A stretch of DNA of 64,000 nt from Heptranchias perlo (lineage: Eukaryota): NCBI RefSeq assembly GCF_035084215.1, contig NC_090326.1, forward strand, positions 98,580,001 through 98,644,000, in the 5' to 3' direction. A program made the translations under genes and the position numbers. Below are positions 9,013 through 52,098 of the stretch, in pieces. Below the pieces are notes generated by a model. That model did not search any database. It worked only from the letters and a program-made list of their open reading frames with translations, and had not been told where the DNA came from. Positions within the stretch are counted from its first letter, which is position 1; every line of letters starts with the position of its first letter.

Positions 9013-11381
9013 CATTCATAGAATCACAGAACGTTATGGCACAGAAGGAGGCCATTCGGCCCATCGTGTCCATGCCAGCCGTAAAAGAGCTATCCAGCTT
9101 AATCCCACTTTCCAGCACTTGGTCCATAGCCCTGTAGGTTACGACACTTCAAGTGCACATCCAAGTACTTTTTAAATGAGTTGAGGGTTTCTGCCTCTAC
9201 CACCCTTTCAGGCAGTGAGTTCCGACCCCCACTACCCTCTGGGTGAAAGAAATTCTCCTCAACTCCCTTCTAATCCTTCTACCAATTACTTTAAGTCTAT
9301 GCCCCCTGGTCACTAACCCCTCTGCTAAGGGAAATAGGTCCTCCCTAGGCCCCTCATAATTTTATATGCCTCAATTAAAGCTCCTCTCAGCCTCCTTTGT
9401 TCCAAAGAAAACAACCCCAGCCTATCCAATCTTTTCTCATAGCTAAAATTCTCCAGCCCTGACAACATCCTCATAAATCTCCTCTGTACCCTCTCTTGTG
9501 CAATCACGTCTTCCCCGTAGTGTGGTAACCAGAACTGTACACAGTACTCTAGCTGTGGTCTAACTAGTGATTTATACAGTTCTAGCATAACCTCCCTGCT
9601 CTTATATTCTATGCCTTGGCTAATAAAGGAAAGTATCCCGTATGCCTTCTTAACCACCTTATCTACCTGTCCTGCTACCTTAAGGGATCTGTGTTCATGA
9701 ACTCCAAGGTCCCTCTGTTCCTCTACACTTCTCAGTATCCTCCCATTTATTGTGTATTCCCTTGCCTTGTTTGCCCTCCCCAAATGCATTGCCTCGCACT
9801 TCTCCGGATTGAATTCCATTTGCCACTTTTCTGCTCACCTGACCAGTCCATTGATATTTTCCTGCAGTCTATAGCTTTCCTCCTCACTCTCAACCACATG
9901 GCCAATTTTTGTATCATCTGCAAACTCCTTAATCATGCCCCCTACATTCAAGTCCTAATCATTAATATATATTACAAATAGCAAGGGACCTAGTACTGAG
10001 CCTTGCGGAACCCCACTGGAAACAGCCTTCCAGTCACAAAAACATCTGTCTACCATTACCCTTTGCTTCCTGCCACTGAGCCAATTTTGGATCCAACTTG
10101 CCACTTTCCCTTGGATCCCATGGGCTTTTACATTTTTTACCAGTCTGCCATGTGGGACCTTGTCAAAAGCCTTGCTAAAATCCATGTAGACTACATCAAA
10201 CACGATCCTCCTTGTCACCTCCTCAAAAAATTCAATCAATTTAGTCAGACACGACCTTCCCGAAACAAATCCATGCTGACTGTCTTTGATTAACCCATAC
10301 CTTTCTAAATGACGATTTCTGCTGTCCCTCAGAATTGATTCCAATAATTTGCCCACCACCGAGGTTAGACTGACTGGCCTATAATTACACAGTCTATCCT
10401 TTTTTCCCTTTTTAAGCAACGGTACAACATTAGCAGTCCTCCAATCCTCCGGCACCATGCCTGTATCCAGTGAGGATTGGAAAATGATGGTCAGAGCCTC
10501 TGTTATTTCCTCCCTTGCTTCTCTTAACAGCCTAGGATACATTTCATCCGGGCCTGGCGATTTATCTACTTTCAAAGATGCTAAACCCCTTAATACTTCC
10601 TCTCTGACTATATTTATCCCCTCCAATATTTCACACTCCTCCTCTTTAACTACAATCTCTGCATCGTCCCCCTCTTTTGTGAAGACAGGCGTAAAGTATT
10701 CATTAAGAACCATACCCACATCTTCCGCCGCCACACATAGGTTACCTTTTTGTTTTCTATTAGGCCCTGCTCTTTCCTTAGTTATTCTCTTGCTCTTTAT
10801 GTATTTATAAAACATCTTTGGGTTTTCCTTGATTTTACTTGCCAGTATTTTTTCATGCTCTCTCTTTGCTTTCCGAATTTCCTTTTTAATTTCACCCCTA
10901 CACTTTCTATACTCCTCTAGGCTTTCTGCAGTATTGAGCTCTCGGTATCTGACATAAGTTTCCCTTTTTTGGCGTATCTTACCCTGTATCCTCCTTGACA
11001 TCCAGTGGGCTCTGAATTTGGGAATCACACCCTTTTTCTTTGTGGGAACGTGTTTGTTCTGAACCTTCACTATCCCTCCCTCGAATTCCTCCCACTGCTC
11101 TGACACTAATTTACCTTCAGGTAGCTGTTTCCAGTCCACTTTTGCTAAATCACTTCTCAGCTTAATAAAATTGGCCTTTCCCCAATTAAGAACTTTTACT
11201 TCTGTTCTATCTTTGTCCTTTTCCATAATTATGCTAATCTAACTGAATTATAATCACTACCACCAAAATGCTCTCCCATTGATACTCCTTCCACCTGCCC
11301 AGCTTCATTCCCTAAAACTAAGTCCAGAACTGCCCCCTCTCTTGTTGAGCTTGCTACGTACTGGCTAAAAAAGTTCTCCTG
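9013..11381 (-). mobile_element. CR1 LINE ORF2 fragment (~2.4 kb, RT domain)
   Basis: 423-aa ORF 9955-11226 with KSPGPDE, NYRPVSLTS, QHGF, DFSKAFD, GVPQGSVLGP, YIND; continues in 9325-9819 to the 3' tail. Confidence 0.95.
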
Positions 11382-17131: not shown

Positions 17132-35315
<18,184 letters not shown>

Positions 35316-45730: not shown

Positions 45731-46550
45731 TATTGTGATACGTTTCAGTCAATATTTTGAGGGTTGTTGTCTACACTTTAAAAAAATCATTACCACAACT
45801 GGCTCCGTTCCTCAGTCCTGCTCCTACTTGGTGTTCTGGGGAACAGGATGCTGTTGCTCACAAGAATTCTCACAATAGTTTTCTGAGATCAGGAATTTCT
45901 GCCCATAGAAGAGTTCGATCCCTGGAACAGCAGTAGCAGCATCACATAGAAGTCATCAGTGGGACTGATTTCACAGTAGATAAGTTCCTGGTTGCAGATT
46001 ACAGGAAATATGAAGTGTACACAAGACAGTTTACCCGGGGAGATAGGTGTATGAATGGAGGGGGAAAAAAATCAGCAAGCAGGTTGACATACATTTTTCC
46101 TCACATAGTGGTTATGAGGGAGGTGGGTGGGATGAAGGCTGCCAATGTGAACTGGAAGGAGAGTGTCAGTGTGAATTGAGGGGTGAGGTGGAGAGGAAGG
46201 ATGTTTTGGTGAACTGGAGGGACAAGTGACTCTGTGTTGCTTGTTCATATAAACAATTTATGATCAGATTTAGCAACAGGGAATACCAATGCATACCCAC
46301 CATTGTCCACAATTTCTCTGCATTAAGGGAAAATTCCCAACATTTTTGCCACAATCATCTGATATATCTGCAGCTTAAGTCATTACTACATTATGTGCCC
46401 ATTGCACCTTCAGTGTAACTGTACAACAGGAGCCTATATTTAGAGCTCCTTTCAGTTATCAGTTTTTTAAAAAACTGTTATCGAGATTTTGCTAATTTTC
46501 TAGATGGCGGTTGAGGATTGCTGGACTATATGCTGCCAGGTTCTTTTGTA

Positions 46551-46791
46551 ATGATGTGGAGATGCCGGTGATGGACTGGGGTGGGCAAATGTAAGGAATC
46601 TTACAACACCAGGTTATAGTCCAACAGTTTTATTTGAAAATCACAAGCTTTTGGAGGCTTTCTCCTTCGTCAGGTGAGTGTGACGAAGGAGAAAGCCTTC
46701 CTCACCTGACGAAGGAGAAAGCCTCCGAAAGCTTGTGATTTTCAAATAAAACTGTTGGACTATAACCTGGTGTTGTAAGATTCCTTACATT
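46551..46791. mobile_element. Palindromic Penelope-terminus insertion with a 12-bp TSD
   Basis: GGTTCTTTTGTA at 46539-46550 and 46792-46803; inverted arms 46588-46678 and 46701-46791 with 1 mismatch. Confidence 0.85.
46702..46738 (+). ncRNA. Minimal type I hammerhead ribozyme motif
   Basis: TCAC-CTGACGA-A-GGAG-aaagc-CTCC-GAAA-GC-TT-GTGA; predicted cleavage after 46734. Confidence 0.75.
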
Positions 46792-46889
46792 GGTTCTTTT
46801 GTATAAAGGGGATATTATCAACGTTTCTAACTGATGCGGTAAGAGCTTCAAGATTGGAAATAATTAATTAAAATGAACTGCTTTAAAAC

Positions 46890-47420
46890 ACTCCGACTGT
46901 TTTTACTTTGCACCGTGCGGTGTTTAGGGCAAGTATTTGGAATGCTGTGTTGGCGGGAAAGATTTTCGCGCAGTTTACCGCGAGCAGGAAGCGCGCGGCG
47001 CCCCGCGCCGGTAACGAGGAAGTGACGTTCAGAGCGTGACGGAAGTAGATTGCTGCTATCACGAACTGACCGTTTGAGGAATTTGTGCGTATCGGCTCGG
47101 AGCTCGGAGCCGGGAGCCCGGAGCCGGGTAACCGCGGGGCTTCTCTCCATATATGTCCCGACAGCTTGTAATGAAACGCGGTTAAACATTAGTGTTAACG
47201 GGCGACAGAGATCAGGTGGTTTTGGGGGAAGGGAAGGGAGGTGCAGCTGGACCCGTGTTGCGAGGCGCTGATTTTCGGGTCGCTCGTTAACACGTTTCGA
47301 TCCGCGATCGTCCCTGTTTTTATGGTGCTCCTTGAGTCCCGCTTTTACTCCTGTGCATTTTAAACAGCATCTTCCGGGTGGAAGTTGCAACCAATGAGTA
47401 ATGAGTGAGTGCCGCTGACT
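46890..47420 (+). promoter_or_regulatory. CpG-island promoter and probable non-coding exon 1 of the zinc-finger gene
   Basis: CpG-rich; E2F-like TTGGCGGGAAA (46950-46960) and TTTTCGCGC (46963-46971); ETS-CRE GGAAGTGACGT (47018-47028); candidate donor G|GTAACC after 47127. Confidence 0.7.
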
Positions 47421-47584
47421 AGGCCTCTTTTCCCCTCCCCCCAAGAATAGTGTTGGACCATCACATATTTTCATGTTTAGCTGTTTGAAACGTACCTGAG
47501 TGAGATTCAGCTCTATTTTAAATGACTCCAAAACGAAAACATTTGATGTGTATTTTTAATTTGTTGTAGATTTCGTATTGAAAC

Positions 47585-49654
47585 ATGAGTGATGCAGATG
47601 AAGTTGTCCAAGCTAACAAGGATGGAAAAGACGCAGCTAAGAGTGATGCAGACCAAGCACAAGCTAATGGTGATGGAAAAGAGTTTGCAAAGAAAGATTC
47701 AGGCGAAGTTAAATCTCACCATATCAGTAGTGAAAAAGACATAGCTAAGAATCCTGAAGGCCAAGTCCAAGCTCAAGCTAATAGTGGACAAGATGAAGTG
47801 AAGGATCACACAGGCCAAGACCAAGCTCAAGATAACAGTAGTAGACAGGAGGAAGGTGAGAGTGACACAGATGAAGTCCAACCTGAAGATAACAATGCTG
47901 AAAAAGACATAGCTGAGGTTGCTGTGGACCAGATCCATATGCAAGAGAACAGTGGTGTACAAGACACAGCTGGGAATAACATAGGTGAAATTCAACCTCA
48001 AATTAACAGTGGTGAAAAAGATGAAGCTAAGAGTGAGACAGGACAAGTCCAAATTAATACTAATAATCGTGGACAAGATGAAGCTCAGAGTGAGTCGGGC
48101 CAAGTCCAAGATCAAGCTAACATTGGTGGACAAGATGAAGCTCAAAGTGAGTCGGGCCAAGTCCAAGATCAAGCCAACAGTAGTGAACAAGATGAAGCCC
48201 TGAGTGAGTCGGGCCGTGGACAAGATGAAGCTCGCGGTGAGTCGGGCCGTGGACAAGATGAAGCTCGCGGTGAGTCGGGCCGTGGACAAGATGAAGCTCG
48301 CGGTGAGTCGGGCCGTGGACAAGATGAAGCTCGCGGTGAGTCGGGCCGTGGACAAGATGAAGCTCGCGGTGAGTCGGGCCGTGGACAAGATGAAGCTCGG
48401 AGTGAGTCGGGCCGTGGACAAGATGAAGCTCGGGGTGAGACGGGCGGTGGACAAGATGAAGCTCAGGGTGAGTCGGGCCGTGGACAAGATGAAGCTCGGA
48501 GTGAGTCGGGCCGTGGACAAGATGAAGCTCGGAGTGAGTCGGGCCGTGGACAAGATGAAGCTCAGGGTGAGACAGGCCGTGGACAAGATGAAGCTCAGGG
48601 TGAGTCGGGCCGTGGACAAGATGAAGCTCAGGGTGAGTCGGGCCGTGGACAAGATGAAGCTCGGAGTGAGTCGGGCCGTGGACAAGATGAAGCTCGGAAT
48701 GAGTCGGGCCGTGGACAAGATGAAGCTCAGGGTGAGTCGGGCCGTGGACAAGATGAAGCTCAGGGTGAGTCGGGCCGTGGACAAGATGAAGCTCAGGGTG
48801 AGTCGGGCCGTGGACAAGATGAAGCTCAGGGTGAGTCGGGCGGTGGACAAGGTGAAGCTCAGGGTGAGTCGGGCCGTGGACAAAATGAAGCTCAGAGTGA
48901 GTTGGGCCGTGGACAAGGTGAAACTCAGGGTAAGTCGGGCTGTGGACAAGATGAAGCTCAGAGTGAGTTGGGCCAAGTTCAAGATCAACCTACCAGTGGT
49001 GGACAAGATGAAGCTCAGAGTGAGTCAGGACGAGATCAAGCTAACAATGCTGAAAAATATGAAGCTAAGAGTGGCACAAGCCAAGTGCAACCTCAGGCCA
49101 ATGGTGGTAGAAAAGTAGTTGCCAAGAGTGCTGTGGGCAAAGTTAAACCTCAGATAACTGGTGGAAGAGCTGGAGTGCTTACTGGAAAAACTGGTGTGCT
49201 AACTGGGAAGAGATTCCCAATTTATATTGGAAAAAAGAGCAAATTTGCTGCAAAAAGATACTCCAGAAAAACAGGTAAAGCCAGCAGTGACCTATGGCAA
49301 GCTAAGAGTGCCCCAGGCCAAGCTCAAGCTAAGACTGTACTTGCCAAGCCTAAATCCCAAGTAAAGAGTGGTGAAAAAGAAAAGTTAAATGTTCTGGTGG
49401 CAGACAAAGTTCAACCTCAGCTGACTGGTGAAAAAAAACTTCCTTTGAGTGCTGGAAAGATAAACAATGCAAGTGACACTAAAAAAACAGCAAATATGAT
49501 GACAAGTGTGACCAATAAAGACCTATTCCAAGCTAACAGAGATGCAACTGGGCCTCCTGCGAGTGTTGGACCTCCTGCGAGTGTTGGACCTCCTGCGAGT
49601 GTTGGGCCTTTGGCTAGTAAAGATGGCAAATCTATGACGATGTTTTGGTGTGAT
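47585..49654 (+). CDS. First coding exon (690 codons) of an uncharacterised repeat-rich matrin-type zinc-finger protein
   Basis: Acceptor ttgttgtag at 47569, AAACATGA start context, open frame ending ..MFWCD with donor GTAAGT at 49655 (phase 0). Confidence 0.85.
48185..48976 (+). repeat. Coding minisatellite, 24 x 33 bp (GQDEA[R/Q][G/S]ESGR)
   Basis: Unit GGACAAGATGAAGCTCAGGGTGAGTCGGGCCGT; copies counted from the translation. Confidence 0.95.
49550..49609 (+). repeat. Coding 18-bp repeat x3.3 (GPPASV)
   Basis: GG(A/G)CCTCCTGCGAGTGTT three times, then GGGCCT. Confidence 0.9.
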
Positions 49655-52029: not shown

Positions 52030-52098
52030 ATTTGCAAAGTAGTTTGCACATCTGCTCTGAATCTCCAGATGCATTTCCTTGGCTTTAAACACAAAAAG
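52030..52098 (+). CDS. Exon completing the matrin/U1C-type zinc finger
   Basis: ttattctag|ICKVVCTSALNLQMHFLGFKHKK|gtaaga; joined to WCD it gives C-x2-C-x12-H-x5-H. Confidence 0.88.

Follow-up and report, generated by a model that had tools for sequence, protein, structure and literature searches.

The palindrome at positions 46539..46803 of the window (the whole 64-kb stretch of DNA that was analysed, G000:C2:98580001-98644000 in a 3.25-Gb genome) is a stub, flanked by a target duplication, of a Penelope/Poseidon-type retroelement that bears an endonuclease; it likely formed when both nicked ends of the target primed reverse transcription on the element RNA in one event, and it is likely neutral where it lies. 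The stub has a 12-bp target-site duplication (TSD), one tailed and one tail-less end, a parent element elsewhere in the genome and thousands of like copies. Its layout has already been published and is common in this genome; the locus is ordinary and the family is useful.

Anatomy of the insert and its parent element

The direct repeat GGTTCTTTTGTA frames the insert in two identical copies, 46539..46550 and 46792..46803 (both + strand), at the modal length of the family. Inside it are two inverted arms of 91 nt each (46588-46678 and 46701-46791), which have a single mismatch between them (46652 versus 46727) and a gap of 22 nt. The preliminary description had placed the perfect duplication, the arms and the mismatch at these coordinates, and they stand as described. 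It had missed that the 37 nt at 46551..46587 (- strand) are not unique sequence and extend the left arm as the tail of the element. Element coordinates were set by reading the - strand from 46678 to 46551 as a 128-nt unit (q1-q128), in which the tail of the pLTR is q92-q128 and, in the full element, reaches as far as the AT with which the ORF start codon opens. By sequence comparison, the tailed arm (46588..46682, - strand) consists of q1-q91 of the pLTR and, upstream, 4 nt more of the element, with which it extends into the spacer. The right, tail-less arm (46701..46791, + strand) is pLTR q1-q91. Tail-less arms of the family stop mostly at q88-q93 (45/64), at the 3' foot of a 6-bp hairpin formed by q74-q89 (46774..46789, + strand), in which one G-C pair is replaced by A-T in a sibling subfamily according to the variant list.

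The spacer also holds a junction filler (46681..46700, + strand), an extra copy of q7-q26 with one mismatch (46699) and 2 nt in common with the tailed arm; similar fillers are found in the copies L039 and L110. The third partial hammerhead core reported in the spacer corresponds to the 18-nt copy at 46681-46698, and the filler is predicted not to be a ribozyme because C3 and GAAA are absent from it. The RNA of the insert had been expected to form a long hairpin, and the predicted fold is indeed a single long hairpin of -183 kcal/mol (z -25), with none of 200 shuffles as good. In the 5' leader (46774-46791 and 46551-46587, - strand), a branch-point-like pentamer at the tail-less start site is followed by a pyrimidine run and CAG, and the element ATG has a good Kozak context; none of the contig joints listed is a splice joint that fits this branch-point/CAG. 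Elsewhere in the window, a tailed pLTR stub of the sibling subfamily lies without an inverted arm at 31676..31800 (- strand; 89% identical over 125 nt), and RVT_1 fragments at 9955-11238 (-), 21724-22434 (+) and 32141-32701 (-) are probably decayed LINEs. Rfam at gathering thresholds gave zero matches in the 64-kb window.

The near-complete parent copy, L097 (G000:C1:19671295-19675822), has a pLTR, an ORF of ~900 codons and a second pLTR. The ORF contains one in-frame stop between RVT_1 (E 2.2e-10) and GIY-YIG (E 8.7e-4; 20 bits, below the Pfam cut-off of 22.6). Past the point where the tail of the insert ends, L097 continues into this RT/GIY-YIG ORF, and the AT of its ATG is formed by the final two letters of the tail. 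The pLTRs flank the ORF in direct order, one ahead of the ATG and the other past the stop. The 5' pLTR begins ~30 nt ahead of q1 and is preceded by an inverted piece from q-100 to q31; a target duplication around L097 was looked for and none was found. The parent has the canonical layout of an EN+ Penelope-like element (PLE), and we presume from its domain order that it belongs to the Penelope/Poseidon clade. The insert shows the one-end tail of 30-40 bp (37 nt here), the inverted 5'-truncated copy and the TSD of such elements. With L097 as parent and 64 of 65 inverted arms in the family tail-less, the earlier assignment to Penelope-type inverted terminal-repeat insertions with minimal hammerheads is borne out.

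Inverted pLTRs, a TSD and a tail on one inverted pLTR have been described as the typical Penelope structure (PMC3846280, PMC8557442). As set out in these sources, the insertion unit of EN+ PLEs (Pen2a_Av in PMC3846280) has head-to-head inverted pLTRs, a 30-40 bp tail at one end, a duplication, and TATA-like and initiator-like pLTR motifs in common with the present copy, which differs in carrying no ORF and in its 12-bp duplication, those of the rotifer examples being 8-10 bp long. Poseidon of Anolis carolinensis (PAc; PMC11167929) likewise has an ORF with RT plus GIY-YIG at the C terminus, a pLTR hammerhead and two preferred 3' ends bracketing the tail, but the PAc ORF starts in helix II whereas the ATG here is at the tail end. 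Two other classes were rejected. Units of non-LTR retrozymes are head-to-tail tandems, each with a complete hammerhead (10.64898/2026.07.22.740005), while the arms here face each other head to head and each strand has a single motif. A MITE or other DNA transposon does not match ends that differ by a tail, or centres and lengths that vary among copies.

Hammerhead motifs and the neighbouring gene

Each arm carries a minimal type-I hammerhead motif, one on each strand, and a motif check agrees with the earlier statement that the + copy is intact and that GAAA has become AAAA in the - copy. The + motif (46702..46738) is composed of CTGACGA, a bulged A, a 4-bp helix II, GAAA, GCTT and a TCAC/GTGA helix I; its predicted cut is after 46734 and would need a same-strand partner, which the insert lacks. 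The core, helices I and II, the 9/10.1 bulge, the palindromic helix III stub and an NUH site are all present. In the - motif (46641..46677), G12 is replaced by A through a C>T change at a CpG (46652). Over 170 arms the motif is well maintained, with TCAC/GTGA in 128, a helix II of 4-5 bp in 164 and GCTT in 168, the fifth helix II pair being A-T or G-C depending on subfamily. Core boxes, a bulged base before helix II, the G10.1-C11.1 pair, the palindromic 15.2-16.2 and a short helix I are all common to the metazoan PLE hammerheads of PMC4209133, which also describes pairs of minimal hammerheads on opposite strands with 100-700 bp between them. The Schistosoma motifs of that source have a helix II of 7-8 bp, compared with 4-5 bp here, and the motif here is known from sequence.

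The loss of the - motif had been offered as either selection or simple CpG decay. Exact copies of the subfamily 36-mer at the mismatch site number 7,182 with CG, 402 with CA and 393 with TG genome-wide; the same G>A change is thus present in 402 of 7,977 arms, and each CpG change in ~5%. Since CA and TG changes are about equally frequent, at ~5% each way, the dead - hammerhead fits neutral CpG deamination and its loss is likely chance, and these counts speak against selection. At the same site in the 90-locus sample described below, tailed arms have CG in 72 and TG in 3, and inverted arms have CG in 49, TG in 3 and CA in 1. In a few fold-backs both arms carry one and the same CpG change, with two close pairs in the first 100 CA matches listed; this is roughly the chance level, and template variants or conversion are possible.

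Single minimal hammerheads showed no cleavage and dimers showed low cleavage in the experiments of Cervera and De la Pena 2014 (PMC4209133). Because a lone minimal hammerhead did not cleave there, there was probably little to select against in the loss of the - ribozyme. In vitro, hammerhead cleavage required protein and was dispensable for insertion (PMC11167929). Neither hammerhead of the insert is likely to cut in cis, because there is one copy per strand and the 91-bp hairpin would mask it; by inference the "intact" + hammerhead is probably non-cutting as well. Contigs of run X5, which is guessed to be RNA, include two joints from 46584 and 46591 to exactly 46735, directly past the predicted hammerhead cut. 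Either joint is found in one contig, and other joints occur elsewhere; genomic copies or the ends of cleaved RNA could account for the two.

The CpG-island promoter proposed next to the insert proved to be the start of a spliced gene on the + strand, with high CpG at its transcribed 5' end. The island covers approximately 46800..47500, with a CpG observed/expected ratio of 1.1-1.4 in 500-nt windows starting at 46600-47000 versus 0.33 in the whole window. As far as the contigs reach, the first exon is 47040..47127 (+), followed by a GT-AG intron (47128-47569); exon starts at 47040 and 47060, both spliced to 47570, are seen in two presumed RNA runs from a single sample and study, whose contigs have no coverage over 46801-47031 and the upstream flank. 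The insert ends ~240 nt before the first exonic base observed. Because the gene runs on the + strand, any upstream antisense RNA would be -, as had been suggested. The gene ATG is at 47585, and further GT-AG joints are 49654/52030 and 52096/56181. A zinc finger of the zf-met type is encoded by the exons that follow (52030-52096 and from ~56181), the third exon matching zf-met with E 2.7e-4. The 2.1-kb coding exon 47585-49654 contains acidic repeats of 19 and 11 residues (units of 57 and 33 nt) and ends in the first half of the zf-met finger; a 694-aa stretch of the neighbouring ORF gave zero Pfam matches. In window-extended coordinates, further finger-like frames lie ~66.2 kb and 94.4 kb on.

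The neighbourhood of a gene start does not make the site special, given thousands of such fold-backs. By a crude test, CpG-rich DNA lies within 500 bp of 3 of 44 other inserts of up to 400 bp, from which a few hundred inserts with such a neighbour would be expected over the genome. The position of the insert is likely chance, and the insert is likely neutral at this site.

Paired arms across the family

Exact matches to a 28-mer that spans the arm/tail border number 9,024 in the genome, and 0 for its reversed control. The tail sample consists of 90 loci (L031-L120), covering the first 91 matches listed, one of which falls inside another locus. The hammerhead sample consists of 60 further loci picked on the 36-mer regardless of tail, as the first new ones in the match list; both samples come from a single contig, within its first 42 Mb. 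A 128-nt DNA search was biased, with 28 of its 30 loci carrying the AAAA change, and L002-L030 were excluded from all counts; this search skips common words, and an intact 91-mer query returned nothing. Two of the excluded loci, L019 and L020 (on C10, 11 kb apart), have identical flanks and a sibling-subfamily arm in direct order with a tailed arm, likely a local segmental duplication.

An inverted arm lies upstream in at least 65 of the 90 tailed copies, a lower bound since 30 loci spanned 1.4 kb only and the others up to 3.9 kb. Direct repeats of at least 9 nt frame 56 of these 65 pairs. Inserts form a continuum from ~70 to 3,900 bp, reaching into the ORF, with many copies at ~200-250 bp; those of up to 300 bp make up 39 of 65 pairs (39 of 90 sampled copies), which, scaled to 9,024, would correspond to roughly 3,900 short fold-backs genome-wide. 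The present insert is thus estimated to be one of several thousand near-identical stubs. It had been called young from its perfect TSD and single mismatch, which holds only relative to the family, in which the arms of a sampled pair show 0-5 differences over up to 84 positions.

The two arms of a pair differ at their outer ends in a consistent manner. In the hammerhead sample, 32 of 53 candidate head-to-head pairs have a direct repeat, and all 32 combine one tailed with one tail-less arm. The tail is on one side in 17 and on the other in 15 (L170 is complex). Tails are present on 52 of 117 arms, and independent tail choice would give 32/32 mixed pairs with a probability of ~1e-10. The 5' reach is more than 10 nt further in the tail-less arm in 23 of 64 pairs and in the tailed arm in 16, and within 10 nt in 25, although local alignment may over-extend a few bases. 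Each arm has sequence absent from its partner in 23 of the 64 pairs. At 12 diagnostic sites the arms mismatch at 6% versus 29 +/- 2% when permuted (46 of 64 pairs with enough overlap), and 2 of these 46 pairs have arms of different subfamilies. Arm lengths are correlated (rho 0.54, p 4e-6, n=64): the partner exceeds 200 nt for 15 of 19 tailed arms longer than 200 nt versus 5 of 45 shorter ones. In L038 and L039, the arms of one duplication-flanked insertion come from different subfamilies; therefore two templates can be used.

Over 86 sites, the repeat is 9-11 nt long in 16, 12 nt in 32, 13 nt in 18, 14 nt in 12 and 15 nt in 8, a distribution which would fit cuts staggered by 12 nt, with some repeats lengthened by chance and others decaying afterwards. 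Where the repeat is 12 nt long (32 sites), the target consensus has two-fold symmetry about the 12-nt stagger, and a matrix built on one flank scored against the reverse complement of the other beats 20,000 of 20,000 background draws, both ways. The repeat and the element end overlap by at least 2 nt in 39 of the 70 tail-less ends and in 23 of the 70 tailed ones, versus ~16% in simulation; the insert at 46539..46803 itself has zero overlap.

Of the 90 tailed arms 33, and of the 64 tail-less arms 25, have their 5' end between q-19 and q+7. A TATA-like motif is located ~30-37 nt ahead of q1 in each subfamily shown, and 5' ends near q1 may be read as run-off at the RNA 5' end. Hammerhead cleavage was considered as a cause of truncation and rejected, as 0 of 154 arm 5' ends lie at q33-q37. 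Because 25 of 90 tailed copies have no inverted arm within 1.4-3.9 kb, several of them with a plain direct duplication, two primings do not appear to be obligatory.

Proposed priming of both target ends and its alternatives

The structure may be explained as follows. The endonuclease, probably dimeric, would nick both strands 12 nt apart. One 3' end would prime at the start codon (q127-128) and yield the tail, while the other would prime ~37 nt upstream, at the foot of the small hairpin (q89-92), both usually on the same RNA or on RNAs of one source. In this insert, the cDNAs would extend to about q-3 and q1, probably the RNA 5' end, ~30 nt behind the TATA-like motif. Their 3' ends would then be joined via a 2-nt microhomology with the 20-nt templated filler, and methyl-CpG would later be deaminated at 46652. 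Double priming is known from LINE-1 twin priming, where both target ends prime cDNA and the inversion is joined by microhomology. There each cDNA covers a part of the RNA of its own; here the same pLTR stretch is covered twice, from two fixed start sites.

In vitro work on PAc found that two RT start sites bracket the tail and that both strands are cut and extended (PMC11167929). Against the double-priming reading, the start site did not differ between strands in that system, and primer homology was absent there, in contrast to the overlaps of 2 nt or more at the element ends of this family; PMC11167929 does not tie the two start sites to opposite ends of one insertion. The mechanism is inferred from genomic scars, with no intermediate seen, and the shared subfamily and correlated lengths would also fit a snap-back. 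As a rule for PLEs in general, asymmetric double priming (a dimer on a symmetric target with a 12-nt stagger and one RNA, starting at the start codon and 37 nt upstream, leaving one tail per two-ended insertion, with short palindromes marking the RNA 5' end) has in our judgment about an even chance of being right.

In the snap-back alternative, one cDNA folds back and copies itself into a mirror arm; a version in which an antisense RNA primes itself has been proposed in PMC3846280, whose account of the junctions, as given there, is a poor fit to the copies of this genome. The usual agreement of the arms in subfamily, the exact-palindrome centres of L034, L054, L072, L083, L108 and L116, and the 25 of 64 pairs with 5' ends at most 10 nt apart are all as self-copying would leave them. 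It does not account for the 23 of 64 pairs in which the tail-less arm has extra 5' sequence and its partner a tail, so that neither copies the other, nor for the mixed subfamilies of L038 and L039, and both outer junctions read as sense-RNA-templated cDNA from the duplicated target; we therefore consider it unlikely. The abundance of copies at ~200-250 bp might instead point to palindromes that spread as whole units, as miniature non-autonomous elements resembling MITEs or retrozymes. Centres and arm lengths that differ from copy to copy, in a continuum reaching into the ORF, make this hardly plausible.

Long palindromes trouble assemblers, and an artefact has to be weighed since zero contigs span the whole insert and the junction contigs enter it by 20 and 24 nt, below the 31-nt bridging rule. 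The perfect duplication of family-typical length, the family-typical ends and the private arm mismatch argue otherwise, as do both outer junctions in short-read contigs at a depth of 16-17 from a run that may be the assembly's own sample. These contigs fit a real, homozygous insertion (those of run X8, a second organism, cover the repeat only and show no empty orthologous site), and an artefact is extremely improbable. A regulatory role, in which the insert was kept or tuned as part of the promoter, selection removed the - ribozyme and the gene is influenced by the hairpin RNA or a cruciform, draws on the closeness of the first exonic base, on the strand that upstream antisense RNA would have, on the very stable hairpin and on same-sample DNA contigs that cross both duplications without branching and as deep as in the flanks, which suggests that this individual has no empty allele. 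Set against the similar frequency of the mirror change (393 arms versus 402), the absence of cleavage by a lone minimal hammerhead in PMC4209133, and the 3 of 44 other short fold-backs near CpG-rich DNA, this role is very unlikely.

Priming from both nicked ends thus stays the preferred reading. The origin of the tandem and inverted structures of PLEs has been called undefined (PMC8557442, PMC11167929), and no published double-priming account of PLE inversions was found by title and abstract opening in a library that lacks most subscription papers. If true, asymmetric double priming would join the two start sites seen in vitro to the long-unexplained inverted-repeat-plus-tail structure. The CG, CA and TG counts provide a neutral baseline for any claim of a dead ribozyme near a gene. 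With thousands of recent copies in one genome, the family gives exact predictions for the existing in vitro system: nicks 12 nt apart, a single tail in each event, one template in most cases, cDNA lengths that are coupled and a short homology at the primer.
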